Source: Promethearchaeota archaeon
GTDB taxonomy: Archaea; Asgardarchaeota; Lokiarchaeia; Sigyniarchaeales; SOKP01
Length of the DNA stretch: 17,758 nt
Direction: 5' to 3'
NCBI GenBank assembly: GCA_011364975.1
Contig: RDOE01000066.1
Span: forward strand, 1-17,758
Notes under the pieces: model-generated
What the model was told of the DNA's origin: nothing
Seen by the model: the letters and a program-made list of their open reading frames with translations, nothing else
Databases searched by the model: none
Program-made: the position numbers and the translations under genes
In this document: positions 1-17,758 of the stretch, piece after piece
Position numbering within the stretch: position 1 is the first letter of the stretch
Layout of the letters: the number at the start of each line of letters is the position of its first letter

Positions 1-1
1 G

Positions 2-1273
2 AATAATGGACTACACTCAATTCAATTATTTGCAAACGATACAGTCGGAAATCATTATTTTTCTGAATTACGGTATTTTACGATGGAAACCAGTGGACCA
101 TCAATATCTATTCTTTCTCCATCTCTTAGTCAGTATTTTGGAACTAATCCTCCAGACTTTAGTCTTAATATCCAAGGAGTCAATCTCGATAAAAGGTGGT
201 ATAGTTTAGACGGAGGATTAACAAATATTACTTTCAATTCCAATACTGGAACTATTAACCAAATTGAATGGGATAAGGCATCACATGGTTCTGTATCAAT
301 AACATTTTATATATATGATTTATTTAGTCGATGGGGTTTTACAAGTATAAATATTAATAAAGATTTGAATCCTCCAACGACAAATATATATTATACTGCT
401 TATAGTGCTCCGAATAAAGTCATAAGTTCTACAACTTTTACACTTTTAGCAACAGATAATTCAGAATCGGGAGTATCGTTGAGAAGATATAAAGTGAACG
501 ATGGCCCATGGCAATCTTATATAGGACCTTTTACGCTTGCAAGTTTAAGTTTAGGAAATTATACTATCTCCTATCAATCTGTAGATAATGTGGGAAACGT
601 AGAAACAGAAAAATATCTAGAAGTTCAATTGATATCAACACCAATACCTCCTCCCCCTCCTCCAGATCTTACATTTATAATCTATATAGTAATTGGGATA
701 GCAATAGCACTTTTTGGTATGATATATCTTAAAGTGATCAGACCAAAAACAGCAGATTCACGTGCGAGGAAGAAGGAGGTAAAAATGGAAAGAACTCGCC
801 TAAAATCCGAACTATTAGAGCAGCAGAGTAGAGAGCAAGAGCGGTTAAGGCAAATCTTAATTGAACAGAAAAGGTTGGAACGAGAAAAAGTAATTCAACA
901 GCAAATGGAACAAGTTCGTTTTGAGAAAGAGCGATTAGAGCAAATTAGAATAATGAAGGAATTAGAAAAGCAAAGCCAAGCTGAATTGATAAAAAAACAA
1001 CGACTTGAAGAAGAACACGCGATAATTGAAAAAATTAGGAAAGTAATGAATGTCTCCACGAGAGTTAAAATGGATACATTAAAAGATTATCTTAAAATGG
1101 ATACAACCACTTTCAATCAAAAAATTTTTGATTGGGCAGCACAATTTAACTTTACAATCGATGGAGATTACCTAAATATAAGGAAAGAAAATGTATCAGA
1201 TTTCATAGATGAGTTAGAAAAACAATTCTCAAGCTGGAGAAGAACAGAAGAAAATCAACTCGATAAATTATAA
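2..1273 (+). CDS. 5'-truncated single-pass membrane protein: extracellular Ig-like/beta-sandwich repeats, poly-Pro linker, TM helix, charged coiled-coil, C-terminal helical domain
   Basis: The frame of ORF 83..1273 is open back to base 2 (NNGLHSIQLFANDTVGNHYFSELRYFT-M), so the gene starts left of the window. Repeated Ig-like strand signatures (ANDTVGN, YDLFSRW, SVDNVGNVE), PIPPPPPP linker, TM LTFIIYIVIGIAIALFGMIYL, E/R/K/Q-rich helix, then an ~80-aa C-terminal domain. Confidence 0.8.
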   Translation, partial: NNGLHSIQLFANDTVGNHYFSELRYFTMETSGPSISILSPSLSQYFGTNPPDFSLNIQGVNLDKRWYSLDGGLTNITFNSNTGTINQIEWDKASHGSVSITFYIYDLFSRWGFTSININKDLNPPTTNIYYTAYSAPNKVISSTTFTLLATDNSESGVSLRRYKVNDGPWQSYIGPFTLASLSLGNYTISYQSVDNVGNVETEKYLEVQLISTPIPPPPPPDLTFIIYIVIGIAIALFGMIYLKVIRPKTADSRARKKEVKMERTRLKSELLEQQSREQERLRQILIEQKRLEREKVIQQQMEQVRFEKERLEQIRIMKELEKQSQAELIKKQRLEEEHAIIEKIRKVMNVSTRVKMDTLKDYLKMDTTTFNQKIFDWAAQFNFTIDGDYLNIRKENVSDFIDELEKQFSSWRRTEENQLDKL

Positions 1274-1302
1274 CATAAGCAGAGATCTATTTATGTTATT
1301 TT
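1270..1302. terminator. Putative bidirectional terminator hairpin between convergent genes
   Basis: Perfect 9-bp inverted repeat ATAACATAA (1270-1278) / TTATGTTAT (1291-1299) that includes the stop codons of both convergent genes; short T run at 1299-1302. Confidence 0.5.
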
Positions 1303-2027
1303 AAGTTCAATATTTTTTTTTGTATGTTAATTACATCTAAAATTCCTTTTTCTCCAATATCTAAAATTTCGTTCAATCTTTCCCGAGAAAACGGGTCACC
1401 TTCAGCAGTTCCTTGAACTTCAATTAGTTCTAAATCCTCGTTTACTACAAGATTGAAATCAACATCTACCTTAGAATCTTCTTCATAATTCAAATCTAAT
1501 AATATTTTATCGTTTTTAATTCCAAGAGAGATAGCAGCGGTTACCTTATAGTCGGGGAATTCATAGATCATCTGTTCGTTATACATATAATTTAAAGCAT
1601 CAAAAACTGCAACGAAAGCGCCAGTTATGGAAGCACATCTGGTTCCACCATCTGCTTGAATTACATCACAATCCACTTTTATTGTACGTTCCCCAATTTT
1701 ATCAAAATTAAAGGCAGCTCTCATACTTCTTCCAATCAGTCTCTGTATTTCATGCGTACGACCTTTTATTCTCTGCCTTTCCCGTTCCCTTTGGTTCCTA
1801 ATTTGAGTTGCTCGAGGGAGCATATTGTATTCCGCGGTAATCCACCCTGTTCCGGTATCCATTAAAAATCGAGGAACGGATTCTTCGACTGTAACTGCGA
1901 CAATTACTTTTGTATCTCCTTGAGTGATTAAAACCGAACCTTCAGGGTATTTTAAATAGTTACGTTCTATTGTAGTTTTTCTAATCTCGTCAAATTTTCT
2001 GCCATCGAGCCTTAAATTTCCTTGCAT
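1296..2027 (-). CDS. rph: Ribonuclease PH (bacterial type, tRNA 3' phosphorolytic exoribonuclease)
   Basis: Motifs RLDGR, EGSVLI, GWITAEYNMLPRAT, GRTHEIQRLIGRSMRA, DCDVIQADGGTRCASITGA, LDLNYEEDS, IEVQGTAEG; 243 aa. Confidence 0.95.
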   Translation of the reverse strand: MQGNLRLDGRKFDEIRKTTIERNYLKYPEGSVLITQGDTKVIVAVTVEESVPRFLMDTGTGWITAEYNMLPRATQIRNQRERERQRIKGRTHEIQRLIGRSMRAAFNFDKIGERTIKVDCDVIQADGGTRCASITGAFVAVFDALNYMYNEQMIYEFPDYKVTAAISLGIKNDKILLDLNYEEDSKVDVDFNLVVNEDLELIEVQGTAEGDPFSRERLNEILDIGEKGILDVINIQKKILNLK

Positions 2028-2130
2028 AGCTTCTAGACCAAATTATTCTTTATTACAAAATCCTATGAAAAATGTTATGAATAAAAATAAGTGACTCATT
2101 TATGTAAAATATAGATAATTAAAATAGTTT

Positions 2131-2162
2131 TAGAAAAAGAGAATTGAATCAATATATTGATT
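2131..2162 (-). terminator. Putative terminator after pheA
   Basis: Perfect 16-bp palindrome AATCAATATATTGATT (2147-2162) 11 nt past the pheA stop, followed on the minus strand by the pyrimidine/U tract TTCTCTTTTTCT. Confidence 0.5.
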
Positions 2163-2173
2163 GCATAATACTT

Positions 2174-3274
2174 CTACTTAAATGGGTAGGTACCTAAAAC
2201 CTTATACCAGATTACGTTTGCTTTCATTTGTTCTAATACATCTTTCACTTTTGTATCTTCTTTATCCCCCTCAAAATCCATGAAAAAAATGTATTCCCAT
2301 CGACCTTTTCTCCTTGGTCTTGATTCAATTTTTGAAAGATTAATTTCAGCATCAGAAAAGATCTTCAATACCCAATATAATGCACCGGGTACATGTTTTG
2401 TGACAAAAACAATGGATGTTTTCATTTTCTCAGTTTTAATTGGATTTTCTGTTTTAGATATTATTAAAAATCGTGTAAAGTTTGAGGGCTCATCTTCAAT
2501 TTTCGAACTTAAAACTTTCAATTCATATACTTCCGCAGCAAATTCTGTACCAATTGCAGCATAAGATTTGTCCTCTAACTTTCTAATTCTTCTTACTGCT
2601 TCAGCAGTAGAGCTTACATCGATTAAATTGGCATTGGGTAAATTTGCCTTCAGCCATGATCTTGTTTGAGCAAAAGCCTGAGGATGAGAAAAAATATTTT
2701 TTATCTGAGAAAGCTCTGAATCCTTTATACCGATAAGATTTTGAACAATTCTTAACTCTATTTCTCCTTGAATGAATAGTTCTTTTTCAATGAGCATGTC
2801 TAAGGTTTCTCTAACGGTACCTTGAAGACTGTTTTCAATAGGTACCACTCCAAATTCAAGTGTATCTTTTTCAATGTTTTCAAATATCTCTTGAGTAGTG
2901 TTATATGATAAAAATTGCGTTCCCGCTTTTGGGAAAAATTCAAGAGCTGCTTGGTGTGTAAAAGTACCCATTGGTCCTAGATATCCTACCTTGGCAATTG
3001 TTCCTTGAATTCCTCGGCTTGCACTAATAATCTCTTTCCAGATTGCTTCAATTCCCTCTTTTCTAAAGATAGTGGACTTGGTTTTGAGCCTCTCAATGAC
3101 TTCCTTTTCTCTTTCAGGTTGTAATACTTCTAAATTGAGTTCTTTCTTTAAGTTCCCTAACCTTAACGCTATATTACCTCGCTCATTCAAAAGATCCAAT
3201 AATTTATCATCAATACTGTCAATCTTTTTTCTTATATCTTCCAATTCTGTTGTATATTTATCTTCTTCACTCAA
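2174..3274 (-). CDS. pheA: Bifunctional chorismate mutase / prephenate dehydratase (P-protein) with ACT domain
   Basis: N-terminal AroQ chorismate mutase (LEDIRKKIDSIDDKLLDLLNER...PERE), PDT motifs YLGPMGTFT, GVVPIENS, SHPQA, NFTRF, ACT domain INLSKIESRP and WEYIFFMD; TTG start. Confidence 0.95.
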   Translation of the reverse strand: MSEEDKYTTELEDIRKKIDSIDDKLLDLLNERGNIALRLGNLKKELNLEVLQPEREKEVIERLKTKSTIFRKEGIEAIWKEIISASRGIQGTIAKVGYLGPMGTFTHQAALEFFPKAGTQFLSYNTTQEIFENIEKDTLEFGVVPIENSLQGTVRETLDMLIEKELFIQGEIELRIVQNLIGIKDSELSQIKNIFSHPQAFAQTRSWLKANLPNANLIDVSSTAEAVRRIRKLEDKSYAAIGTEFAAEVYELKVLSSKIEDEPSNFTRFLIISKTENPIKTEKMKTSIVFVTKHVPGALYWVLKIFSDAEINLSKIESRPRRKGRWEYIFFMDFEGDKEDTKVKDVLEQMKANVIWYKVLGTYPFK

Positions 3275-3320
3275 TATGATCCCATTTTTGATTAATTGAA
3301 TTTAAATAAAGATAATTAAC

Positions 3321-4997
3321 TTAAATAAATTTTTGTAAGTTTAATTCAAATCCCGCAACGGGAAATTCTAATTTGAAATTTAAAAGAACTTCAGGGTGAA
3401 TTTCACCGATCTCTCCTACTTTCGTCTTTTTATAATAAATCTCTCCGTACCTTCCCTCAATATATGTCGGATTTGTTGAGGGTTTAATTGTATAATCATT
3501 ACTCAATCCGAGAGAATTCATAATATAATCTAAAGCTGATCGAATTTCAGTAAAATCAGCATCTTCATGATACGAGACTGCCGATAAGTGTACCTCTCTT
3601 TTAGCTCCAGTTTCTTCTTTCGAAGCTAATAGTAAAATGTCCCCCACTTCAAAAATTTTTATTGGTTTTTCCTCGGATCGATTAAAGCGAAGGGTTTCCA
3701 TTAATTTAGGTAAAATTGCTGTACGAGTAGTATCATATTCTTTGGATACTGGATTTGCAATTTGAATTAAATTATCTATTTTGAACTCTTGTTTCATAGA
3801 ATGGTAATTTCTTTCTGAATTGGAAAGAATAAAATTAAGAACCTCTAAATACCCTGCCCCGATCATAATTATTCTAATCTTATTTTGAAATGATTGAATC
3901 GGATGATATTCTCCAATTCCCCCCTCTCTAATTGTTTTGGGGATATTATAATACCCATACCCAATAGCTACTTCTTCAGTAAAATCTACGGAATGCATTA
4001 TATCTCCACGAAATGCTGGAACTTCGACTTCTATATATCCTTTCTTTTTAGATTTTGCAGCATTCATTCTGACTTTCTTCAAACATTTAATTATTTCTTC
4101 ATTAGATAACTTAAGACCTATAAAACTATTGATATAATCCGCGTTTATTTCCCATTTTTTAGCATCGAGATTTGGAGTGACAATCTCTTTCTCTCCTTCA
4201 TAAATAACTTTAACAGATTCAATTTCTGCTCCCATATCTGATAATGTAGTTGAGAGTATATTCAATGCAAGGTTTATGGCGTTAAAGTCAGTACCCGTTA
4301 AATCTAAGAAAAGATTTTTTGTTTCATCTGTAACTGTGGTCAGTTCACCATTGATGATAGGAGGAAACGAAAGTACTTCATTGTTTTTATCAAAAATTAT
4401 AGGATAAACCTCTTTTCCTTCAAGAATATGAGCATATTCAATTCCTTTATCGTGTAGTAATAAAATTTCTTCTAGATTCATTGGATATCCATCACCATGT
4501 AAAGGAACAAAACTTACTGAATCAGGCTTTACTGCTGTGTACCGATATGGAGGAGCTACTTTATCTAAATCGTGAACTCCTATTGCAACTTTTTTTCTAC
4601 CTCGACCAACAGCCCAGTGAAGATGTTCTTGAATATTCATTAAGGTGGCTACTTCTTCTTCATCTAAATCTATATTTCGAATGACTCCACATACTATGTA
4701 GGGTCTTACTTTTTTTACACTTGGATCTACATTTAATATTACTTTACCCGGAGTTATGTTAAATTGAGGCAACCCAAGTTCTACTTCGTAATATCCTTTT
4801 AAAGCTCGAGCTATTCCCTCTGGGCTTGAAAAATCTGGTCTATTTGGATTATATTCAACCTTTAATGTTTGTTCTTCTTCATTAATATCTTCAAGATCTA
4901 AACTTATCCATTGGAGATCGTATTCCAAATCTTTAAGTGATAATTTTTTGCCTACTAATCTCTCTAACCGGTCTATTTTCAATTCTAAAGTCGGCAT
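3321..4997 (-). CDS. pheT: Phenylalanine--tRNA ligase beta subunit (archaeal/eukaryotic type)
   Basis: MPTL start, NRPDFSSPEGIARAL, KKVAIGVHDLD, VLSFPPIING, PAFRGDIMHSVDFTEEVAIGYGY, GEIHPEVL. Start moved from 5039 to ATG 4997, which has a strong RBS and removes the overlap with pheS; 558 aa. Confidence 0.95.
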   Translation of the reverse strand: MPTLELKIDRLERLVGKKLSLKDLEYDLQWISLDLEDINEEEQTLKVEYNPNRPDFSSPEGIARALKGYYEVELGLPQFNITPGKVILNVDPSVKKVRPYIVCGVIRNIDLDEEEVATLMNIQEHLHWAVGRGRKKVAIGVHDLDKVAPPYRYTAVKPDSVSFVPLHGDGYPMNLEEILLLHDKGIEYAHILEGKEVYPIIFDKNNEVLSFPPIINGELTTVTDETKNLFLDLTGTDFNAINLALNILSTTLSDMGAEIESVKVIYEGEKEIVTPNLDAKKWEINADYINSFIGLKLSNEEIIKCLKKVRMNAAKSKKKGYIEVEVPAFRGDIMHSVDFTEEVAIGYGYYNIPKTIREGGIGEYHPIQSFQNKIRIIMIGAGYLEVLNFILSNSERNYHSMKQEFKIDNLIQIANPVSKEYDTTRTAILPKLMETLRFNRSEEKPIKIFEVGDILLLASKEETGAKREVHLSAVSYHEDADFTEIRSALDYIMNSLGLSNDYTIKPSTNPTYIEGRYGEIYYKKTKVGEIGEIHPEVLLNFKLEFPVAGFELNLQKFI

Positions 4998-5006
4998 ACT
5001 TTTTAA

Positions 5007-5014
5007 ACCTCCTC
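5007..5014 (-). promoter_or_regulatory. Shine-Dalgarno site of pheT
   Basis: GAGGAGGT directly after the pheS stop and 9 nt upstream of ATG 4997. Confidence 0.75.
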
Positions 5015-6550
5015 TTAGTAAGACTGATTCCTCAACCATTTAATTGGATTTATATACAAATCTCTTATATCTTCCCGTTCATAATATAACATCGCAATTC
5101 TTTCCAAACCTTGACCCCAGGCTAACACTCTCGTTGGTTCCTTTATACCCCAAGGATAGGTTACCTCTGGACGAAAAATCCCAGACCCTCCCATCTCTAA
5201 CCACTGACCTAATTTATCATAATACACCGAGACTTCCATGCTTGGTTCTGTGTATGGAAAAAATCCTGGTCGTGTAACGATTTTTTTAAATCCCATTTTC
5301 CTATAAAATTCTGATAATAATCCAATTAAGTCACCTAAATTTGCATTATCATCTATTACAATCCCTTCTACTTGAGTAAATTCTGCTAAATGAGATTTAT
5401 CTACCCTTTCATTGCGAAATACTCTATCTATACAAAATACTTTGATAGGTGGGGTATCATTATTGTTATAATATTCCGCTAATCTTCTTATAGTTGTAGC
5501 TGTAGTATGGGTTCTAAGAACTGTTTGCTTGGCTATATTTTCATCCCAATTATACCCCCATCCTGTAGAATTTGAATCTCCTCCATTTTCATGGGTTGCC
5601 TTCACTGCTAATACACGATCTTTTGCGGGTAATTTTGCTACTTTTGGAATATTCAAATAAAATGTATCTTGAAGTTCTCGAGCCGGATGATCCTGAGGTT
5701 GAAATAATGCATCAAAATTAAAGAAAGCACTTTCTATTACCGGACCACGTATTTCAGTAAATCCCATTGATATAAAAATCTCTCGAATTTGGTTAATGAG
5801 ATTGATAACGGGATGTATCTTTCCTGCTTTTAGCGTTGGGCCTGGTATTGTAATATCAAACGGCTTTAAACTGACAGTACTCCATTCACCAGAACTAAGC
5901 ATTTCAGCTGTGAGTTTACTTACTTGCTTTAATTCCTTTATATCGGATAATTTTATTTTTTTACCTTTTTCTGTTAAATAAATGACTCTTTGAGTTTTGC
6001 TCATCCTTTTAATCAGTTTTCGCTTGTTTAAAATATCCAGATTAGTTGTTTCTTCAATAGATAATGAGCCATAATCCATAATCGAATCATCGTGAAATTT
6101 GCTCAAAAATTGTTCTAAATCTGTTTTAGGAAAACTTTCGGTCATTAGAAATATTTTATTCTCTCCTGATGCTTTACTTTGTGCAATCCATCTATTCTTT
6201 TTCATGTTTGTAATACCAACATAAAAAATTGGCCTCGGTAAGTTTGATGATTTAAGTAAATCATCCATCTCAATTTCTTTGATATCTTTCTCCACAAATA
6301 TATTTAATAATTGCCGTTCAGGCAATCCTTTTTTTAGATAGGACATCCCTTCCTCAGTTAAAGTCACTTGATTTATTTCCGATTCACGAAATCCAGCAAG
6401 ATCGTGTGCTATCAAATCATTAATAGCAGACATAAGAACTATATAATCAATATCCAATTCTTTTGATAATTTTGAAGCTAATACATCTGTATTTTTGTTC
6501 TTAAGGATTTTTAGAATGTCAATAACTTGCTTTTTTAATTCGATTGGCAT
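5015..6550 (-). CDS. pheS: Phenylalanine--tRNA ligase alpha subunit (archaeal/eukaryotic long type)
   Basis: N-terminal extension (LTEEG...GLPE), GKIHP, FNFDALFQPQDHPARELQDTF, VLRTHTT, DRVFRNE, HLAEFTQVEG, FFPYTEPSME, GGSGIFRPEV, WGQGLERIAM; 511 aa. Confidence 0.97.
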   Translation of the reverse strand: MPIELKKQVIDILKILKNKNTDVLASKLSKELDIDYIVLMSAINDLIAHDLAGFRESEINQVTLTEEGMSYLKKGLPERQLLNIFVEKDIKEIEMDDLLKSSNLPRPIFYVGITNMKKNRWIAQSKASGENKIFLMTESFPKTDLEQFLSKFHDDSIMDYGSLSIEETTNLDILNKRKLIKRMSKTQRVIYLTEKGKKIKLSDIKELKQVSKLTAEMLSSGEWSTVSLKPFDITIPGPTLKAGKIHPVINLINQIREIFISMGFTEIRGPVIESAFFNFDALFQPQDHPARELQDTFYLNIPKVAKLPAKDRVLAVKATHENGGDSNSTGWGYNWDENIAKQTVLRTHTTATTIRRLAEYYNNNDTPPIKVFCIDRVFRNERVDKSHLAEFTQVEGIVIDDNANLGDLIGLLSEFYRKMGFKKIVTRPGFFPYTEPSMEVSVYYDKLGQWLEMGGSGIFRPEVTYPWGIKEPTRVLAWGQGLERIAMLYYEREDIRDLYINPIKWLRNQSY

Positions 6551-6726
6551 AACAAAAGTTCAAAAATATTATATTTTTTTCTATAGGTTTTTAAAATATT
6601 TAACTTATTTAAATCTTTCGCGGAGAATAGCGCTTTTCTTGAGCCTATCTTAAAATAGAACAATTCTAATGTGTTAAACCATGTAGGATCTCTAACTTTT
6701 ATAATTGAATTTTTAATAATGCCGCA

Positions 6727-6768
6727 GCCAAGGGATTAATTTGTAAGAAAGCCCTTTAAACCCTTGGC
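6727..6768 (-). promoter_or_regulatory. GC-rich leader hairpin upstream of pheS (candidate attenuator element)
   Basis: Minus strand GCCAAGGG-U-UUAA...UUAA-U-CCCUUGGC: 8 perfect bp, one U-U mismatch, 4 further bp, in otherwise very AT-rich intergenic DNA. Confidence 0.6.
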
Positions 6769-6842
6769 AGGTTAAAATGATTGAAGAAAAAGCTAACTTG
6801 ATAGAGTTCTAACAGATCTACTAACTTATACTTTTGATTCAT
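6756..6842 (-). CDS. Putative Phe-rich leader peptide, 28 aa MNQKYKLVDLLELYQVSFFFNHFNLPRV
   Basis: ATG at 6842, purine-rich GAGAAGAG just upstream, codons TTT TTC TTC AAT CAT TTT at 6791-6774, TAA at 6758-6756; same strand as and 205 nt upstream of pheS. Shorter than any ORF in the supplied track. Confidence 0.6.
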   Translation of the reverse strand: MNQKYKLVDLLELYQVSFFFNHFNLPRV

Positions 6843-6878
6843 CAATAACTCTTCTCAAGTGCAGTTTTAATTACTTAC

Positions 6879-6895
6879 TATAATTATTTTTTTCC
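6879..6895 (-). promoter_or_regulatory. Possible BRE/TATA promoter for the phe leader transcript
   Basis: Minus strand GGAAAAAAA-TAATTATA about 37-53 nt upstream of the leader ATG; weak evidence because the region is AT-rich. Confidence 0.3.
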
Positions 6896-6910
6896 TAAAA
6901 AATTTTGCGG

Positions 6911-7357
6911 CTATTCTAATTTTTCTCGTATATTTGTTGAACTAATTAATCTATTGTCTTTATCCTTTAACATAGGAATTACAACAAGAATTAATGGTAC
7001 CATCCCCTTTTTTTCACGGGCCTCATTTAATTTTATGCCATTCTCATAAGTTTCTTGGCTTACCACTAAAGCTTCATATTCTGGATCGAGAGCATATCCA
7101 GTCATTTGTTCCCAACTTTTTATAGTAACTATATTTACTCGATTTAAATCTGAAATTGAAGCGATATAATCTTTAAGCTTTTTTTTTCTAACTTCAAAGC
7201 TTTCTAAATGAGAGCCATATTTTTTATTTTTTAACAAATCTTCAGAAGTTAAACCAATTTCTATAAATTCAGAGACTGATAATGCTATTTTTATTAGCAA
7301 TTTATGACCATCGTGTAAATGGTCAAAAGTTCCGCCTAGCCCAACCTTTTTAAAAAT
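6911..7357 (-). CDS. coaD: Phosphopantetheine adenylyltransferase, archaeal type (cytidylyltransferase superfamily)
   Basis: The frame extends upstream of the called TTG (7300) to include (I)FKKVGLGGTFDHLHDGHKLL, the GGTFD-HxGH motif; also IGLTSE, ALVVSQET, LNEAREKKGM, ISSTNIR. Proposed start ATT at 7357 gives 148 aa. Confidence 0.88.
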   Translation of the reverse strand: MFKKVGLGGTFDHLHDGHKLLIKIALSVSEFIEIGLTSEDLLKNKKYGSHLESFEVRKKKLKDYIASISDLNRVNIVTIKSWEQMTGYALDPEYEALVVSQETYENGIKLNEAREKKGMVPLILVVIPMLKDKDNRLISSTNIREKLE

Positions 7358-7398
7358 TAGGATACACCTTTCAAACTAAGACTTATATACTTAATTAG

Positions 7399-7854
7399 TT
7401 AGGTTTTATTAGTAGTTTTGTCTTTTTTTGGTTTAGTTTTTTCTTTTTTCGCTTTTTCTTTTTCAGTCATTTCTTTTGTAGGCTTTTTTAGCTTAACACT
7501 ATAAATCTGTGCAATTTTCATAGGTTCAGTACATTTTTGGCAAGATTCTGTCATTTTAAAGACGTAATCTCCTTGCTTATAGTGTCTTACAGAAGTAATA
7601 TTGCATAAGCTGCATTTTATAATGGTTAGCGTTTGTCTAATTGGCTCTGCGGGTTGTTTTTGAATTTGAATTAATGTAGATCCAAAACAAATTAATGTAA
7701 AACCAATAAAGAAATTGGTAGTAGAGTCTTGTCCTCCAAGATATATAAATAAAGCTCCAATTATAATTAATGCAACTAGAAGTAAGTTCTTTAACACATT
7801 TTTAAGAGAAATCCCTTTTTCTAAAATCTCCTCGTCGTCTTCTTCATCAATCAT
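7399..7854 (-). CDS. Hypothetical membrane protein, two TM helices plus C-terminal Zn-ribbon and Lys-rich tail
   Basis: Two hydrophobic segments, CSLC...CQKC with intervening YKQGDYVFK; co-oriented with PPAT. Confidence 0.75.
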   Translation of the reverse strand: MIDEEDDEEILEKGISLKNVLKNLLLVALIIIGALFIYLGGQDSTTNFFIGFTLICFGSTLIQIQKQPAEPIRQTLTIIKCSLCNITSVRHYKQGDYVFKMTESCQKCTEPMKIAQIYSVKLKKPTKEMTEKEKAKKEKTKPKKDKTTNKT

Positions 7855-8003
7855 AAGTATCGTGTAATATTCTTATCCTTTTCTTATAATGTATACTCTA
7901 TAATAGAAAAGAATATAAGATTAAATAAATTTTGTTATTATGAAAATTTAATAGATTTAGCTTTTTAATTACTAAAATTATTTACAGAAAAGATAGGATA
8001 TAA

Positions 8004-9158
8004 ATGATTTACAATTTAATGCAGTTAGGTCAAAACCAGACCGATCCTCTTGGGTTGCTATTGAATGTGCTCTGGTTTGTCATGATTTTCATTTCTATTT
8101 TCTATGGCACTAAAATCCAGGCTTATCGTTCACAAAAGGAAGTAGAAAGTGGATTGAGTAAAATTAAGAAATGGGATGATGATTGCAAACAAATTCTACT
8201 TACTAACTTTCGTAAATTCGCAGATAAAAAAGAAACTGATAAGGATTTAATGTTAAAGTTAGAAGATGTACTTACATTTATAGCAATCACTCCAGTTGAT
8301 CTTGATCCCTATGGTATTATTCCAAAAATCGATCATATTCTTGATGTGAGAGATGACCGATTCAAGAATGAAGTTAAAACATTGGCACCTAATGTAGAGT
8401 CTGGAACGCCTGAAGCACAAAATCTTGAAAATGTCCTCGAAGCCGCCATGGCTGTAGATTATGTATACAGGTTAGTTAAACATTTCTTAATCCTTGGAAA
8501 AAAATCGAAGTCATATATCTTGCTTATGCAAATCTCTATGCAGATGTCGTTAATACTTGCGATGGCAAAAAGTTATTATCATGCTACTAAAGCATTCGCT
8601 GAAGGAAGTCCTATTGGAGATGCCCTGGGTCCGATGGTAGCTGGAAGTTTTATAAGAAATGTATCAGAAAAAGATGATATTGAAGCTTTGGAAATTGCTA
8701 AGGACACTATTGTACAAGAAGTTGATTTTGAAGGTAGAGATATATATGTTGTGCGAGCTAAAGGACCTGGAGGAACTGTTGGAAAACCAGGAACCGCCAT
8801 CAAAAAATTAATTGAAGAACATGGAGAGAAAATTACTCGAATCTTCATGATCGATGCTGGATTGAAACTTTCTGGAGATAAAACAGGGTCGATAGCAATA
8901 GGAGTTGGTGCTGCAATTGGCGGGATAGGTGTAGAAAAATTCTATATTGAAGAATCGTCTACTAATAAGGCAATTCCGATTGATGCTTTGATTTGTAGAC
9001 AATCATTAGAAGATGCAATTACTACTATGAAGCGACCAATTACTCAATCAGTCATTCCAATCGTTGAGAAAATAAAAATGGGAATAAGAAAGCGTACCGA
9101 AAAGGGCGCTAAAGTTATTATAGCTGGAATCGGCAACACCATAGGAATAGGAGTATAA
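8004..9158 (+). CDS. DUF1512 family archaeal membrane-anchored protein
   Basis: N-terminal TM; PVDLDPYGIIPKIDH, GSPIGDALGPMVA, AKGPGGTVGKPG, IDAGLKLSGDKTG, GAAIGGIGVEK, C-terminal GIGNTIGIG; 384 aa. Confidence 0.85.
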   Translation: MIYNLMQLGQNQTDPLGLLLNVLWFVMIFISIFYGTKIQAYRSQKEVESGLSKIKKWDDDCKQILLTNFRKFADKKETDKDLMLKLEDVLTFIAITPVDLDPYGIIPKIDHILDVRDDRFKNEVKTLAPNVESGTPEAQNLENVLEAAMAVDYVYRLVKHFLILGKKSKSYILLMQISMQMSLILAMAKSYYHATKAFAEGSPIGDALGPMVAGSFIRNVSEKDDIEALEIAKDTIVQEVDFEGRDIYVVRAKGPGGTVGKPGTAIKKLIEEHGEKITRIFMIDAGLKLSGDKTGSIAIGVGAAIGGIGVEKFYIEESSTNKAIPIDALICRQSLEDAITTMKRPITQSVIPIVEKIKMGIRKRTEKGAKVIIAGIGNTIGIGV

Positions 9159-9287
9159 TTTTTTTATAAATTATATAATTTTAATCTTCTTTTAAGATAT
9201 AATTCTTTATTTAGTACTTTTACTTATCATAAATATAATAATTTCATAAAAATCAATCTAAGTAATAATAGTTAGAAGGTGAAAAAT

Positions 9288-9746
9288 ATGCCAAAATTTG
9301 GAAGTAATGAATGGGCTAAAGCCTTTATGAAAGCAGTTAATGATAATCCAAATTATAAACAAGCAGCTTCTTGGTGGGAGGGTGATTTTATATTTGGTAT
9401 TGACCCAAGTGGTCCTCTTTCAAAGAAAATAAACATGTTCGTTGGGTTATATCATGGAGATTGCACAGGGGCAAAAACTTTAGCTGAAGGAGAGGAATTC
9501 GACGTTTTGAAACCTAACTCGCCACCTAGACCATTAAAGGAAGGTGAAAAAGTAGGTGTTGAATTTGTATTTTCAGGACCTTATGATAATTGGGTAAAGG
9601 TATTAAAAAAAGAACTAGACCCAATTCAAGGATTAATGGCTGGGAAATTTAAATTGGTTGGTAATATGGCTAAAGTGATGAGAGCAACCAAAGCTGCTCA
9701 AGAACTTGTTAATTCTACAACCATGGTCGAAACAGAATACTATTAA
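9288..9746 (+). CDS. SCP2 sterol/lipid-binding domain protein
   Basis: FGSNEW...VNDNPNYKQAASWWEGDF, GPYDNWVKVLKKELDPIQGLMAGKFKLVGNMAKVM is a typical SCP2 pattern. ATG 9288 preferred because AGGTGA (9277-9282) forms its RBS. Confidence 0.85.
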   Translation: MPKFGSNEWAKAFMKAVNDNPNYKQAASWWEGDFIFGIDPSGPLSKKINMFVGLYHGDCTGAKTLAEGEEFDVLKPNSPPRPLKEGEKVGVEFVFSGPYDNWVKVLKKELDPIQGLMAGKFKLVGNMAKVMRATKAAQELVNSTTMVETEYY

Positions 9747-9930
9747 TCTCTTATTATTTTTTTCTTTTCTATTTTGATAAAATAACCTCTTAAGTAATTT
9801 ATTAACTCAAGCTAAGGAGTATTTAAGATCAAACCTTAAATTTATTAAAAAAAAAATAAATATTGGACTATAGATTATATTTAATAGGTATTCTTTTATG
9901 AATATCATAAAAATAATCTAATTAAAAAAA

Positions 9931-10953
9931 ATGATAACTATGGGCTTATCCGCAAAAGAATTTTATGTAAAAGATTTAGTTATAGATGATGAGTATGGGA
10001 CGATTAGTTCTAACGCTACAATTCAAGAAGCTGCTAAAAAAATGAAAGAGCTTGGGGTACCCGATTTAGTTGTTGAAGAAGCAAACACTAAAGATGTATT
10101 AGGCGTTATTGCTGACTTTGATATTGTTCAAAACGTAGTAGCTGAAGGAAAGGATTATAAAACTGCAAATGTGACGACAGCTATGTATAAAATCACTCCT
10201 GTCAATTTGAATGATAAAGTTACTGAAGCTTTTAGACGAATGCGCGATTTACATGTGAATGTTATTCCTGTGGTCGAGGATGGGAAATTGGTAGGTGTGT
10301 GTAGTATACAAGATTGTTGGAGTTACATCCCAGACGAGAATATTGATGAGATCGGTTTAATCCCTGTTGAGAATACGAAAGCTGCAGAGTTTTGGTTCGC
10401 AAGCGTGTCATCAATTACTGCATTCATTTTGGGAATAATTTTACCTCTTGCAGGACTTGTTGGATTCTTCCTCACTAGTCAAGCGGACATTATGTCTTTA
10501 TTAGGATTAGCTGATGTTAGAGGAGGAAATCTTGTGTTTTATCTATTTGAAGCACATGCTACCGACTTTTTTGTTCCAATAATAAACTTAGCTGAGAGGA
10601 GTGGAGGAATATGGATAGCTATTGTAATTTTTAGTATTCTTCTTCTCATATTTGGATTTTTAGCATTATTTTCATTAATATATTCAAGTTTTTCTGATGC
10701 AAGACGAATAAAAACGGGTTATATCGTAAGGGTTGTTATTCCATTGTTAACAGTTTTTTTTATGATAATGGAATGGATTTTATTTTCTATAGGTTTTGCG
10801 ACTGCAAGCCAACCTGTTGATTATTCAATAGATCCTATAGGTTTCACTTTATCAATAATATCGATGATTCTTTTTATAGGCGCAATTTACCGTGATTACT
10901 TTTTCCGTCAAAAAAAATCAACTAGTGTAAAAGCTAATGAGGTGCCATTATAA
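9931..10953 (+). CDS. CBS-pair domain fused to a four-TM membrane domain
   Basis: CBS motifs ATIQEAAKKMKELGV...VLGVIADFDI and KVTEAFRRMRDLHVNVIPVVEDGKLVGVCSIQD, then four hydrophobic helices; start at 9931 or 9940. Confidence 0.85.
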   Translation: MITMGLSAKEFYVKDLVIDDEYGTISSNATIQEAAKKMKELGVPDLVVEEANTKDVLGVIADFDIVQNVVAEGKDYKTANVTTAMYKITPVNLNDKVTEAFRRMRDLHVNVIPVVEDGKLVGVCSIQDCWSYIPDENIDEIGLIPVENTKAAEFWFASVSSITAFILGIILPLAGLVGFFLTSQADIMSLLGLADVRGGNLVFYLFEAHATDFFVPIINLAERSGGIWIAIVIFSILLLIFGFLALFSLIYSSFSDARRIKTGYIVRVVIPLLTVFFMIMEWILFSIGFATASQPVDYSIDPIGFTLSIISMILFIGAIYRDYFFRQKKSTSVKANEVPL

Positions 10954-10955
10954 AG

Positions 10956-12485
10956 ATGCCTAGAGGCGGTGGCGGTGGATCTCGAGGCGGTGGCGGAGGA
11001 TTTCGAGGTGGTGGCGGAGGATTCAGAGGAGGCGGAATGGGTGGAGGCTTCCGAGGTGGAGGATTTAGAGGTTCCCCCGCAAGCTTTCGAATGGGTGGTG
11101 CTCGACCAGGAGGTATGCCTTTTGGAAGGACTGGAGCAACAAGAATAGTATCTCGATCCCCTAGTGGCCCTTATCGCCACAGTTATTATCGCCCACATCG
11201 CAGTTATTATGGCCGATATGGGTACTATGGTTGGAGGTATAGACCATATTGGTGGGGATATAGGCCTTGGTATTGGAGATGGTGGTATTCTCCTTGGTGG
11301 TCGGGGTATTATTATCGGCCATGGTATTATAGTCCTGCCTATATTGGGGGTGGCGTAATCTTTGCTATCCTATTAGGATTAATCCTATTACCATTGTTTG
11401 GTATAGCACTTTGGTTTCCATTCTCCAATGCAGATACAAATGGAAATGTTAACTATCGCTCTACAGAGACTCTTTATTTTAATGAATACTGGTATGAGAA
11501 AGAATACATTCAAACAGGAAATGAGATTACCTTTAGTGTACAATCGAGTCTTAGTCCTATTGGTTTTGCTATTTGGGATGAACCATTTGAAAACCTACCT
11601 TTGACAACTGTAAGTGAAGGACCATTTTCAGAAATACTTATCTTAGCTGAAAATCAGTATGAGTATTTTTCAGTATTTTTAAAGCCAGGATCTTCAATTA
11701 CGTATAATTTTAATGCAAGTTTATTCGTAGACTTTTTCATTGCTAATGGAAATCAATTGTATCAATGGAATGAAGGATATACTACGTCTTTTTATGAATT
11801 TGAGACGACTAATTCCTCCTCTGGAACATTTAATGTGCTTTCTGAAGCTCAAGATTATTATCTTGTTTGGTATAATGAAAATATAACAACTGCTAATGTT
11901 GATATTAGTTACAGTTTTTCAGCTGTAAATGTGATTGATTTAAGCGTAGCTGATTATTCCGTACTTAATACATACGCAGTTTCCGAGGATACGTTCGCAG
12001 TCCCTCAATCTGGTGAATGGTATTTCTTTATTTATTTCGATCCTCTCTACTCTCCTTATGAGACTACATCTATTACTTTTGATGTAACTTATGATTCGGG
12101 TTTAACTTCTACAGATCGATGGATAGATATTCAACCAATTTTGATAACAATCTTAGTCATTATAGTATTTATTCTAATTGCTGCGGTGATTGCACGACGA
12201 GGACAAAAAAAGATTAAGGAAAAACATCCCGATGCCTATGCTCCAAAAGACCAAATTACAACGCAGCCTTCAACTGAACAACCTTCTAAATGTATAAATT
12301 GCGGTACAACTCTTAGACCTGATGCCAATTTCTGTCCTAACTGTGGCACTAAGAAAGAAGGAAGAAAAATTGGAGAATCACCGGTTACCACACCACCTCA
12401 ATCTAAAATTTGCTCCTATTGCGGAAGTGAATTAACTCAATCTGACAAATTTTGTAAATGGTGTGGTACAAAAATAGAACAATAA
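10956..12485 (+). CDS. Two-TM protein: N-terminal RGG and Tyr/Trp/Arg-rich low-complexity region, beta-rich ectodomain, C-terminal double zinc ribbon
   Basis: Residues 1-40 (G)nFR repeats; 73-129 Y/W/R/P-rich; TM ~134-154; ectodomain ~161-380 with NAS/NSS/NIT sequons; TM ~395-413; CINC..CPNC and CSYC..CKWC. Starts 2 nt after the CBS gene stop. Confidence 0.85.
   Translation: MPRGGGGGSRGGGGGFRGGGGGFRGGGMGGGFRGGGFRGSPASFRMGGARPGGMPFGRTGATRIVSRSPSGPYRHSYYRPHRSYYGRYGYYGWRYRPYWWGYRPWYWRWWYSPWWSGYYYRPWYYSPAYIGGGVIFAILLGLILLPLFGIALWFPFSNADTNGNVNYRSTETLYFNEYWYEKEYIQTGNEITFSVQSSLSPIGFAIWDEPFENLPLTTVSEGPFSEILILAENQYEYFSVFLKPGSSITYNFNASLFVDFFIANGNQLYQWNEGYTTSFYEFETTNSSSGTFNVLSEAQDYYLVWYNENITTANVDISYSFSAVNVIDLSVADYSVLNTYAVSEDTFAVPQSGEWYFFIYFDPLYSPYETTSITFDVTYDSGLTSTDRWIDIQPILITILVIIVFILIAAVIARRGQKKIKEKHPDAYAPKDQITTQPSTEQPSKCINCGTTLRPDANFCPNCGTKKEGRKIGESPVTTPPQSKICSYCGSELTQSDKFCKWCGTKIEQ
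10965..11072 (+). repeat. Coding tandem repeat, 21-nt unit encoding GGGGG(F/S)R
   Basis: ggcggtggcggtggatctcga / ggcggtggcggaggatttcga / ggtggtggcggaggattcaga, then shorter degenerate GGGFR units. Confidence 0.85.
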
Positions 12486-12575
12486 ATCATCTTATTTCAA
12501 AATCCAAATTCTTAAATTTTTACTTTTTTTTCTTTATTTTATAGCTCGTTAAATGCCTATGATAGATTTATAATT

Positions 12576-13268
12576 ATGTTAAATGAATTTTTAAATTTAT
12601 ATGTTAAAAGAAGGATAATAGTCTTATTCTGGTATATAATACTTATGAATTTGGTTTTTTTACTTGGAATTTTACTTGATCTTTTAGCAAATGTTAACTT
12701 TAGCATTATTTTAGCTATAAATGTAATTATAATTGCTATTTTCTTTTTAAATATAGAGATAAAGCAAAAAAAAGTCTGCATTATTTTAGATACCATTACA
12801 CTACAAGAATTATACTTAGAAGAACAACAAAAACATCCAATTAAAGGCAGAAAGTTAACAAAACTTTATAAAAAATGGTTATTGACTTATGCAATGAATA
12901 ATAATATTGATATTCGTTATAATCCTTCTTTTTATGAAAGTTTTCATAGCTTATGTTTTTACTGTTGCTGTAATCTTTTTCCTATTTTGATTATTGGGAT
13001 GATTTCCATAATCTATTTATCTGTTTTTCATGCTTGGGTAATAATATTAATTTTTAGCGTTCTTTCTATCACTTTTTATTTTTTAATGGAAAGACGCTCT
13101 AATATGCTTAAATATAAAACGCTTGATTCTGAAATTAAAAGAATAATTTTTGAGGAAGAAACAGGTTATATGCCTATTCACAAAACTAAATTAACCTTTA
13201 AATATAGAGCATGGTTAATTATGAATGAAAGGAAACAAACAAAATCAGTTTTCGTAAACAACATATGA
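12576..13268 (+). CDS. Hypothetical membrane protein (about four TM helices)
   Basis: 230-aa ORF filling the gap between neighbouring genes, two pairs of hydrophobic helices, very AT-rich; no recognisable family; start uncertain. Confidence 0.55.
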   Translation: MLNEFLNLYVKRRIIVLFWYIILMNLVFLLGILLDLLANVNFSIILAINVIIIAIFFLNIEIKQKKVCIILDTITLQELYLEEQQKHPIKGRKLTKLYKKWLLTYAMNNNIDIRYNPSFYESFHSLCFYCCCNLFPILIIGMISIIYLSVFHAWVIILIFSVLSITFYFLMERRSNMLKYKTLDSEIKRIIFEEETGYMPIHKTKLTFKYRAWLIMNERKQTKSVFVNNI

Positions 13269-13344
13269 TATAAATCATTTTCTTAATTTGATCTATTTAA
13301 TTATTTTTTAATACTTTCAATTACCTTTTTAAAAGTTAATAAGG

Positions 13345-14148
13345 ATGAATAAAAAAAATGAAAAATTAGCTCAGCTAGCAAATAAACTTGTCTTCTTTTT
13401 TGATCTAGATGGAACAATTTATCTAGGAAATCAATTGTTTGATGGGGTTCTTGAATTAATAAGAATTTTAAAAAAAAGCGAGAAAAGTTTTTACTTTCTT
13501 TCAAATAATTCAAGTAAATCGACCAATGATTATCTAAGAAAGTTAAATGAGTTGAATCTTAATATCACAAGAGAAAATATAATTTTATCTCAACATCCCA
13601 CTATAGATTATTTGAATAAAAATCAATATCATGAGATTTTTTTACTAGGCACAGAATCTCTCAAAAAGGAATTTAGAAGTGAAGGTTTTATTCTCACAGA
13701 AGATAATCCTGAGGTTATCGTATTAGCGTTTGATAAAGACTTAACCTATGATCGCTTAAAAACAGCATCTCTCTTACTTCAAGAAGGGATTCCTTATATT
13801 GCTACTCATTTAGATGATCGTTGTCCAACTGAAAATGGATACATTCCTGATGCCGGTGGTATTGCCTCTTTACTTTACAAAGCGACAGAGCGAATGCCTA
13901 TAGTCTTGGGAAAGCCTAATAAGGAGATGCTCACTTTTAAGTTAGAAGAACTCGGGATTGATCCTAAGGATGCTGTAATTTTTGGAGATAGATTATATAC
14001 TGATATAAAAATGGGAATAGATGCCGGAGTTACAACTTGTTGTGTACTTTCCGGAGAAATATCATTAGAATTGATTGAAAAAAGCAAAGATTTTCAGCCG
14101 GATTATATAATTGATGGTATCTGGGATTTTTTAGAAATTTTGAAGTAA
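13345..14148 (+). CDS. HAD-superfamily subfamily IIA hydrolase (NagD-like phosphatase)
   Basis: Motif I FDLDGTIY, motif II LSNNS, GKP, motif IV GDRLYTDI, VLSGE, PDYII. Confidence 0.92.
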   Translation: MNKKNEKLAQLANKLVFFFDLDGTIYLGNQLFDGVLELIRILKKSEKSFYFLSNNSSKSTNDYLRKLNELNLNITRENIILSQHPTIDYLNKNQYHEIFLLGTESLKKEFRSEGFILTEDNPEVIVLAFDKDLTYDRLKTASLLLQEGIPYIATHLDDRCPTENGYIPDAGGIASLLYKATERMPIVLGKPNKEMLTFKLEELGIDPKDAVIFGDRLYTDIKMGIDAGVTTCCVLSGEISLELIEKSKDFQPDYIIDGIWDFLEILK

Positions 14149-14315
14149 TTAAAATCTCTTAAATCTCATTTCTTATAATCATAATGTAAATTTTGAATTA
14201 AAAAAGTAAAAAATATATCAGAAGTAATATTCTTTTTAGTACTTATAAATCAAATTTTATCCTTCAATCTTATTGAAATATATTTTTAGAAAATGACTAT
14301 AAATGGTTTTACAAA

Positions 14316-17012: not shown

Positions 17013-17138
17013 GGTAATCCACTACTTTTTATTAAACATTATTTCTATTTATCTATATTCACTTTCTTTGAATATTATTTTTTTTAAAGCTAAAAGAAAC
17101 TACCAAAAATTAAAAATACAAAAATCTATGTCTAACAT

Positions 17139-17552
17139 ATGGCGGAAGATAATTTTGAAGAATTAGAACATTTTCTAATGCCTTATGCAATTGGTAGGTT
17201 TGAAGAGAAGAGCGTAAAAGGACTTAAAGGCGTTTTAAAACGCATGATAACGAAGGATTTCATGGACTATTTAGCATGGGTTGTGCGAGCATTCGTAAGA
17301 TGTATTTGCACAGTCGAAGAAAGCTTACATATCAAAGAAATTTTAACTATTGTTCTCGCTGAAGCCAACCTAGCTTCAAATGCACCACCATTCATAATAA
17401 AGGTTAGTGATAACTTTTTAGATACGTTTGATAGTATCGATCTCAAAACAATGATGGAGAGCGAGGTACATCGATGGTTAGTATATCTTCAAGAAAGTTC
17501 CAAGCTTCCTGGTAAATATAATCGGTTTACAGGAAAGTATGTAAAAATGTAA
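17139..17552 (+). CDS. Hypothetical protein
   Basis: 137-aa ORF with natural, helical-looking composition; no recognisable motif. Confidence 0.7.
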   Translation: MAEDNFEELEHFLMPYAIGRFEEKSVKGLKGVLKRMITKDFMDYLAWVVRAFVRCICTVEESLHIKEILTIVLAEANLASNAPPFIIKVSDNFLDTFDSIDLKTMMESEVHRWLVYLQESSKLPGKYNRFTGKYVKM

Positions 17553-17758
17553 AAAAAACCACATTAGTATTAAAACGATGAGTCTAAATTCATTTGAGAA
17601 CTTTTTTGGACCTCAAATTACTTCTGTTTAGGCGCTAAAAAAGATATACTTTATACCTTAATATTAAAAAAGTTGGAATTTACTCTCTAATATTACATAC
17701 ATTCATTGTTAATGAAAAATATAAATATCTGTCCTATTATTCAAATTATTATTAGTTA

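Follow-up and report, generated by a model that had tools for sequence, protein, structure and literature searches.

A probable Phe-codon sensor ORF ahead of pheS in an Asgard archaeon, with attenuation control of pheS-pheT-pheA proposed

Introduction

Control of amino-acid genes by leader peptides is a textbook case of bacterial coupled transcription and translation, and in Escherichia coli the pheA, pheST, trp, his and leu operons are governed by leader-peptide transcription attenuators. The subject of this work is a comparable arrangement in a Promethearchaeota archaeon (Lokiarchaeia; Sigyniarchaeales), found on contig RDOE01000066.1 of assembly GCA_011364975.1; the whole stretch analysed, positions 1 to 17,758, is referred to as the window. 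Ahead of the phenylalanyl-tRNA synthetase gene pheS lies an upstream open reading frame (uORF; here also leader ORF) with a cluster of phenylalanine (Phe) codons, the stop codon of which falls within an RNA hairpin. That this ORF is a Phe-codon sensor is well supported by the sequence comparisons described below; attenuation control of pheS-pheT-pheA is proposed only.

As in the bacterial attenuators, a short ORF with clustered codons precedes genes that make or charge the same amino acid, the final codons together with the stop fall within a hairpin's 5' arm (the position of the bacterial 1:2 helix), and the gene classes are the same, namely PheRS and chorismate mutase/prephenate dehydratase. 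Unlike in those systems, there is a single conserved helix and no antiterminator/terminator pair, only about half of the relatives, and not the window, have a U-tract, and the hairpin is set apart from pheS by some 180 nucleotides (nt) and a promoter-like box. The host also differs in having archaeal RNA polymerase and termination factors, and the ORF is probably leaderless.

Two further systems invite comparison. TnaC senses a free amino acid and induces a catabolic operon. A conserved C-terminal peptide and a fixed stop are common to TnaC and the present leader, and a ribosome held at the end of the ORF could here too mask RNA from a termination factor, but this leader has repeated cognate codons, and a synthetase and a biosynthetic enzyme are encoded downstream. 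The GCN4 uORFs and the arginine attenuator peptide are eukaryotic examples of uORFs that tune amino-acid genes. They resemble the present case in that upstream ORFs tune amino-acid genes, and the host belongs to the Asgard archaea; they differ in using scanning and reinitiation or peptide arrest in place of cognate-codon clusters beside a hairpin, and no homology is claimed.

The mycobacterial 'Cys ribulon' is outlined in a preprint (bioRxiv 10.1101/834739) as a set of polycysteine leaderless short ORFs that serve as ribosome-pausing sensors. In common with that outline, a leaderless short ORF would stand first in the transcript here, with runs of cognate codons and several loci that would form a ribosome-coordinated regulon; no equivalent of the pairing with the next ribosome-binding site was found here, where the hairpin ends 177 nt before pheS, and four amino acids are involved as opposed to the one of that outline. 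In the translational attenuation of ermC, as summarized in one source (PMC10219788), an antibiotic is the signal, and the Shine-Dalgarno sequence of the following gene is buried in a hairpin. In both cases, a stalled ribosome on the leader ORF would remodel a hairpin close by, but no pairing that would hide a Shine-Dalgarno sequence in the way summarized there was found here. For archaea, a general statement that uORFs regulate genes stands in the introduction of one paper (among PMC6991167, PMC1262725, PMC10219788 and PMC7261190). No amino-acid leader peptide from an archaeon came up in full-text literature searches, which do not extend to supplementary tables listing small ORFs or mapped transcription starts.

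A Phe-rich leader ORF with a hairpin over its stop

The element occupies part of the 360-nt spacer between the end of the upstream coaD-like ORF (6911) and the pheS ATG (6550), and consists of the following features:

6756-6842, minus strand: leader ORF (uORF), from ATG at 6842 to TAA at 6758-6756, 28 codons plus stop
6774-6791, minus strand: Phe codon cluster, F18 F19 F20 N H F23
6727-6768, minus strand: RNA hairpin over the leader ORF stop
6721-6726, minus strand: 3' flank of the hairpin, UGCGG(C), nearly invariant in relatives and with no U-run after it here
6849-6859, minus strand: conserved box CTTGAGAAGAG, between a TATA-like stretch and the leader ORF start

The translation of the leader ORF is MNQKYKLVDLLELYQVSFFFNHFNLPRV, in which the only four Phe codons are F18-F20 (6791-6783) and F23 (6776-6774). 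An in-frame TTG at 6845 lies one codon before the ATG, from which the ORF would have 29 codons. The upstream bound of the frame is an in-frame TGA within box CTTGAGAAGAG, nearly invariant in the same-genus alignment. The hairpin arms, GCCAAGGGTTTAA (6768-6756) and TTAATCCCTTGGC (6739-6727), pair at 12 of 13 positions; the 5' arm is formed by the third base of Leu25 followed by Pro-Arg-Val-stop, and the motif has one copy in the 3.74-Mb assembly. The preliminary description of this DNA, made from its letters alone, had reported the 28-codon ORF, the Phe cluster, the 12/13-bp hairpin, the 360-nt spacer and the pheS-pheT-pheA series, all of which were confirmed from the sequence and from domain matches.

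Its caveat that Phe codons arise easily was also borne out. In this genome, 2340 upstream regions yield 3992 small ORFs, of which 93 contain at least four Phe in seven codons. The folding energy of a 60-nt segment with the hairpin is -16.5 kcal/mol (z = -1.29), a value reached by 23 of 200 shuffled sequences; for the whole spacer, z = -0.45. Both the Phe cluster and the hairpin are thus within chance in a single genome, and their significance can come only from comparison with relatives.

No family was reached in a scan of Rfam 15, where the best scores were 16.4-18.3 bits against gathering scores of 41-50 (E of at least 1.1), and ARAGORN returned no tRNA. The snoRNA-like rows of the Rfam scan (16-18 bits) were discarded as chance, and a C/D-box or H/ACA reading was rejected, since relatives do not keep the box-like TGATGA found where the uORF starts.

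Conservation within the genus

PheS was used as the query in 41 genomes, giving 24 same-genus loci (68-74% protein identity) and six loci of other families. Because the search was anchored on PheS homology, the same-genus sample is unbiased with respect to the leader. Of the 24 loci, 23 could be judged, L012 having only 28 nt upstream of the gene. A uORF of 27-34 codons precedes pheS in 22 of the 23, starting 287-304 nt and ending 198-208 nt before the pheS ATG. The tail of these uORFs reads S-F-x-F-x-F-F-x-L-P-R-E/D/V-stop, with free variation over the first ~16 codons. At four aligned positions, Phe is found in 18, 18, 18 and 22 of the 22 relatives (one of these positions is His in the window), and variation at the Phe positions is mostly in the third base, between TTT and TTC.

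The reading frame is free of stops throughout the same-genus alignment (23 sequences by 28 codons); the other two frames in the sense direction contain 35 and 60 stops, and the three antisense ones 67, 38 and 102. Only ATG or TTG is found in the putative start column. The position of the stop is fixed in both genus and family, while its identity varies among TAA, TAG and TGA. At the remaining locus, L004 (G009:C318), the uORF start was removed by a deletion, and the Phe-rich tail and the hairpin remain. The same deletion has moved the end of the coaD-like gene into the leader, 283 nt before pheS.

Conservation across the family and order

A two-arm hairpin pattern was scanned over 154 genomes of the order, with the reversed pattern as a control. 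Matches were obtained in 96 of the 154 genomes (92 of 134 in the family of the window, in ten of its twelve genera); the control pattern matched ~28 times. Most matching genomes had one match, and a few had a second, chance-like one. Of 30 loci that were fetched, 27, from nine other genera of the family, had the leader context, the other three (L109, L110 and L120) being chance-like matches of the arm pattern. In 24 of these 27, pheS follows 132-225 nt after the uORF stop; for the remaining three, the contig does not extend far enough.

In the 26 usable loci from other genera, the uORF frame again contains no stop, compared with 35, 44, 34, 33 and 91 in the other frames. An in-frame ATG is present in 24 of the 26, giving 20-37 codons, most often 29. 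The last 11 codons hold 3-5 in-frame Phe codons, the mean being 3.92 versus 1.46 and 2.04 in the other frames. To avoid selection on the hairpin, the PheS loci of eight pattern-negative genomes were also fetched, and all eight were found to carry a variant of the element at the same place. In L144 and L145, the uORF ends LPR-stop following a one-base deletion; in L146 it ends LPSEY-stop, and LPRN is another variant end. In genus g17, both arms of the stem are altered, to GCCAAGGAAU/AUUCCUUGGC (L140), and in genus g13, the closing pair is flipped from G-C to C-G and a U5 run directly follows the stem. Together with the same-genus loci, these results give the conservation that the preliminary description had named as decisive: uORF, Phe cluster and hairpin are all kept, with the spacing between them fixed (22 of 23 same-genus loci and 27 family loci).

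In other families of the order, no uORF was found before pheS, and the coaD-like gene lies 46-129 nt from it. No Phe leader was found before pheA in another family, where the pheA-like genes are inside operons or split.

Covariation of the hairpin

All 23 same-genus sequences have the hairpin, with 97.4% of cells paired; in 50 sequences, the value is 97.2% and a 10-bp core is conserved. The most informative pair, 55:89, is GC in 31 sequences, GU in 11 and AU in 8, and is unpaired in none; in all eight sequences with A at column 55, U is found opposite. On the other strand, the G-U states would be A-C mismatches, which points to an RNA helix on the pheS strand. Because six of the ten pairs are invariant and the relatives are not independent of each other, support from covariation is moderate and not strong.

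Parallel leaders for Trp, Leu and Ile

Cognate uORFs elsewhere in the same genome had been named in the preliminary description as a means of checking its reading, and a scan of the genome (G000) found counterparts for tryptophan (Trp), leucine (Leu) and isoleucine (Ile):

L031:3361-3414, plus strand (G000:C125): Trp leader MATLKIVTWCWQWPWRS-stop, 168 nt before a TrpB-like gene (trpB2) at L031:3583-4983
L147:3030-3119, minus strand (G000:C47): Leu leader of 29 codons ending LLAVLLLLL-stop, before leuS at L147:1-2892 (minus strand)
L149:3065-3139, minus strand (G000:C113): Ile leader ending IIMIIPSKIIIE-stop (IIPSKIIIE), before ileS (L149:38-2725 and upstream, minus strand)

The Trp leader is the only one of the 3992 small ORFs with four Trp in seven codons (at least three in 2, at least two in 29), and it precedes the TrpB-like gene (NF009057, 628 bits). 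A Trp uORF was found before this gene in 22/22 same-genus loci and in 11/11 assessable loci of three other families, that is 33/33 over four families, with L061 too short to judge. Across these families, the uORFs end W-x-W-[RHQP], two to four residues from the stop. Hairpins lie over the Trp uORF stop, with sequences that are quite different between families; that they are kept despite this points to real structural conservation. RNAalifold barely recovered the Trp hairpin, and a column-wise count of pairs was set aside, as the helices stand in different registers. In the leader of family f2, GGUUUU follows the stem.

The Leu uORF, detected by scanning synthetase genes, lies 137 nt before the archaeal-type leuS (TIGR00395, 955.8 bits). 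It is present in 16/16 assessable same-genus relatives (17/17 with this genome; L153 was too short) and absent from two loci of family f2. A stem of ~12 bp begins 5 nt after its stop, with a conserved U-rich loop and compensating changes. For ileS (TIGR00392, 740 bits), the leader was found in 3/3 cases, there being only two close orthologues (G006 and G008), which end IISDIIIK and IISEIIIQ; a covarying stem follows the stop.

As a control, 20 other amino-acid-biased uORFs were inspected, and their downstream genes were unrelated to the enriched amino acid. Among 15 matches to aminoacyl-tRNA synthetase families (pheS excluded), a cognate-rich uORF occurs only at the archaeal-type LeuRS and at IleRS, and none was found at ValRS, MetRS or the class 1b, 2 and 2b synthetase genes. 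Blind scans for more cognate leaders were noisy. With four matches between the enriched codon and the function downstream, a codon-counting sensor becomes far likelier than an unrelated micropeptide.

Several further observations were made at these loci. Additional small covarying helices were seen by eye in the leader upstream of trpB2. The heptamer CCUUGGC is common to positions 6727-6733 of the window, in the 3' arm of the Phe hairpin, and to L031:3400-3406 in the Trp uORF, where it covers the codons P-W-R; in the Trp leaders, GGSCUUGGC is kept across families, including the third base of an Ala/Pro codon. The shared heptamer may be a coincidence or may reflect a common constraint at the RNA level. 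The genome has two leucyl-tRNA synthetase genes, one archaeal-type (G000:C47:1267-4158, TIGR00395) and one bacterial-type (G000:C200:5447-8239, TIGR00396, 961.8 bits), and the Leu leader is found only before the former. The ileS frame (G000:C113, ~34925-35115, minus strand) is open for 958 residues, but at the point where both orthologues begin with ATG (MSYI...), it lacks an ATG, GTG or TTG, and a canonical start codon, GTG, first appears ~63 codons further in. Flanking ileS on the opposite strand are two small ORFs starting MSYLII (MSYLIIFPYIWIEKESI and MSYLIIIITI; G000:C113, upstream of 30806 and 35510, plus strand), which may be a repeat or chance.

Proposed mechanism

The comparisons make it somewhat more probable than not, in our judgement, that the leader ORF is selected and translated and signals how much Phe-tRNA is available, by way of ribosomes that stall at its Phe codons. 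Two features frame the proposed course of events:

6865-6885, minus strand: AT-rich TATA-like stretch upstream of the uORF, candidate promoter
6606-6620, minus strand: CGAAAGATTTAAATA, B recognition element (BRE)/TATA-like box, 56-70 nt upstream of the pheS ATG

In the upstream regions of 48 uORFs, TATA-like 7-mers peak at -34 from the uORF start (12/48), and 22/48 fall within -36 to -32. From this peak, the uORF transcript is probably leaderless or short-leadered, and it would start at its own TATA-like promoter. In Haloferax, an archaeal ribosome is reported to have a footprint of 27 nt, with 12 nt lying 5' of the P site (PMC7261190). From the first base of the last Phe codon to the start of the hairpin's 5' arm, the distance is 8 nt; combining this with the footprint values, a ribosome with that codon in its A site would extend over the initial 4 bases of the stem. 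With the same footprint, a ribosome on F18-F20 would leave the stem untouched, and one at the stop would cover the whole 5' arm. The earlier proposal that a stalled ribosome leaves the hairpin intact would therefore hold for F18-F20, but not for the last Phe codon, where the ribosome would reach 4 nt into the base of the stem.

If the ORF is a sensor, three outputs can be considered. The one that we tentatively prefer, with slightly less than even confidence, is a leader transcript ended or destabilized at the hairpin, with read-through when ribosomes stall on the last Phe codons. Under this scheme, the hairpin, with its U-rich tract in many relatives, would stop or destabilize the leader transcript. 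When Phe is ample, the ribosome would finish and leave, and the hairpin would form; under Phe shortage, a ribosome detained at the last, invariant Phe codons would weaken the base of the stem, and transcription would continue into pheS-pheT-pheA. This leader-regulated input would add to a basal pheS promoter at 6620-6606. A different output, namely an effect on mRNA stability, on translation or in trans, is conceivable for a sensor of this kind, although doubtful. The opposite polarity, that of the preliminary description, in which an upstream stall keeps the hairpin, a terminating ribosome melts it and termination is factor-dependent, seems unlikely even if sensing is granted.

Observations that weigh against sensing and attenuation

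A number of observations count against the proposals above, some of them bearing on the ORF and others on its output. Regarding the ORF, the same-genus uORFs have an ATG in 10/22 cases and only a TTG, in the same column, in 12/22. Over the three codon positions, column entropy averages 0.50/0.81/0.88, which is not what coding sequence typically shows. RNA pairing by itself accounts for the conservation of the last four codons, which overlap the stem. The relatives on which the counts are based are not statistically independent, and the 27 family loci were found through the hairpin pattern, so their hairpins are not independent evidence. In genus g13 (L141-L143), the uORF is no longer than 13 codons and just one of the three loci has a canonical start for it, and the hairpin persists in L004, L139 (of genus g17), L141 and L143, which have no canonical uORF start. 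The presence of the hairpin where the uORF start is lost or the uORF is short indicates that the hairpin is more conserved than the ORF.

Regarding the output, the box CGAAAGATTTAAATA is the most conserved block of the spacer and is also found in genera g13, g17, g22 and g23, that is, in every genus examined. It may be pheS's own promoter, in which case pheS would start downstream of the hairpin, and the leader would only add to or interfere with its expression. A pheS start downstream of 6727 had been named at the outset as evidence against attenuation, and the box at 6620-6606 is a conserved candidate of that kind, known from sequence. Positions of TATA-like words across the genome gave no sharp peak, from which a typical promoter distance for the -63 box is not derivable. 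Among the sequencing runs listed, no RNA set contains the stretch; next to none of its words occurs in six metatranscriptome runs from the same studies, and no reads from four of these aligned to 5900-7000 at 80% likeness, an outcome that carries no information on expression.

A hairpin followed by a T-run was not found on this strand in 6300-7400, in agreement with the earlier remark that there is no classical hairpin-plus-U-tract; the sigma-70/terminator scan behind this result applies a bacterial consensus, uninformative for an archaeon, and was used for this absence only. Within 20 nt after the hairpin, a T-run of at least 4 is present in 30/53 relatives, only about half, versus 38/159 control windows, and one of at least 5 in 17/53 versus 10/159; five loci including the window were not anchored in this count, and two rows were mis-anchored. 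RNAalifold gave only one helix over the whole leader, whether free or with the 5' arm blocked, and when duplex partners for the 3' arm were sought further down the leader, the targets were weak and scattered and none was consistent, including a CYAAG-like site near -125 seen in some sequences. Mutually exclusive antiterminator and terminator helices were accordingly not found by either search of the leader. Conserved pairing with the pheS start region was not found either, the hairpin ending at 6727, 177 nt before the pheS ATG. The direction of regulation is not readable from the sequence. Of the Phe attenuator as first described, the sensor ORF is therefore well supported, whereas control by attenuation does not follow from a single helix with a BRE/TATA-like box downstream of it.

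Alternative explanations

The leader could instead be an independent gene for a hydrophobic micropeptide, with its own promoter and terminator hairpin, the adjacency to pheS being inherited gene order. The TATA-like stretch lies at the right distance upstream, the hairpin after the ORF often has a U-run, and pheS has a separate promoter-like box, all as this would predict. A micropeptide under selection sits poorly, however, with a sequence in which only the Phe-rich tail is kept and codons 1-16 are free to change. There is one copy of the element per genome, next to pheS in all 24 family loci with sufficient contig, and three further small ORFs (Trp, Leu and Ile) match the amino acid of the next gene when 20 other biased uORFs do not. 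We regard an unrelated micropeptide gene as quite unlikely.

The freely varying N-terminal half of the ORF can also be read differently, as that of a nascent peptide which, on sensing free phenylalanine, halts the ribosome making it at or close to the stop, in the manner of TnaC with tryptophan and with no counting of charged tRNA. The nearly invariant C-terminal F-F-x-L-P-R-E/D and stop position, and the W-x-W-[RHQ] kept near the stop of the Trp leaders across families, would fit such an arrest. The L-P-R-E codons, however, are the hairpin arm, the pairing of which already accounts for their conservation, and variant ends (LPR, LPSEY and LPRN) exist; the Leu and Ile leaders end in plain runs of cognate codons, a better fit to codon counting. 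Peptide arrest is considered improbable.

Less probable still is that the hairpin alone is functional, as a terminator or 3'-end structure of the upstream transcript or as a protein-binding site, with the ORF a by-product. The hairpin is indeed present at every locus examined, including L004, L139, L141 and L143, which have no canonical ORF start, and in genus g13 it is directly followed by the U5 run. A by-product would not be expected to remain open across ~16 unconserved codons in 49 sequences when the other frames are full of stops, nor to keep its start and stop positions through codon changes with third-base variation at its Phe codons, and the coaD-like gene has a T-run of its own right after its stop. 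A chance ORF beside a chance hairpin in an AT-rich spacer, which the single genome would allow (93/3992 Phe-cluster uORFs; hairpin z = -1.29), is contradicted by the conservation in relatives and the three parallel leaders, and its probability is negligible.

Significance

With the sensor reading extended to all four loci, the balance tips slightly towards an Asgard order that runs a ribosome-read regulon, in which leaderless ORFs of ~17-30 codons with a cognate-codon cluster and a stop hairpin would tune synthetase and biosynthetic genes. The cognate pairs are Phe with pheS-pheT-pheA, Trp with trpB2, Leu with leuS and Ile with ileS. If this is true, ribosome-mediated attenuation, held to be bacterial and dependent on bacterial terminators, would work with archaeal polymerase and termination machinery, possibly of independent origin, in a group labelled close kin of eukaryotes. 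The single helix, the probably leaderless ORF and the possible second promoter differ from the bacterial four-segment design, which suggests that this may be an independent solution. The leaders make several questions testable: whether archaeal ribosome-RNA polymerase coupling is tight enough for gene regulation, how an archaeal terminator or termination factor reads a hairpin beside a ribosome, and how archaeal aminoacyl-tRNA synthetase genes are regulated. For annotators, they would constitute a class of conserved 17-30-codon ORFs overlooked by gene callers.

Flanking genes and borders of the element

Five minus-strand genes stand in series at the locus, namely coaD-like, pheS, pheT, pheA-like and RNase PH-like, of which the following were placed together with a T-run:

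6911-7375, minus strand: coaD-like gene (phosphopantetheine adenylyltransferase-like), the 5' border of the element and not part of it
6894-6906, minus strand: T-run AAAATTTTTTAGG, directly 3' of the coaD-like stop
5015-6550, minus strand: pheS, phenylalanyl-tRNA synthetase alpha chain (PF01409, 295.6 bits)
3321-5039, minus strand: pheT, phenylalanyl-tRNA synthetase beta chain (PF17759, B5 and B3_4 domains)
2174-3274, minus strand: pheA-like gene with CM_2, PDT and ACT (chorismate mutase, prephenate dehydratase and ACT domain)

The pheT and pheS genes overlap by 25 nt, and the product of the pheA-like gene was assigned as prephenate dehydratase by NF008865 (293.9 bits, cut-off 219). The coaD-like frame matches PF01467 (27.6 bits) and scores 100.7 bits with NF001985, slightly below the cut-off of 104; it is open from stop to stop over 6911-7375 and holds the motif GGTFDHLHDGH. 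In the window, this motif precedes the first canonical start, a TTG at 7300, with no earlier in-frame ATG, GTG or TTG (7300-7375, minus strand). Relatives have an ATG or GTG start before the motif, and the gene here may use a non-canonical start or may have lost its start. The T-run after the coaD-like stop is kept at the same place in the alignment of same-genus relatives, and AAAATTTTTTAGG is likely the end signal of the coaD-like transcript.

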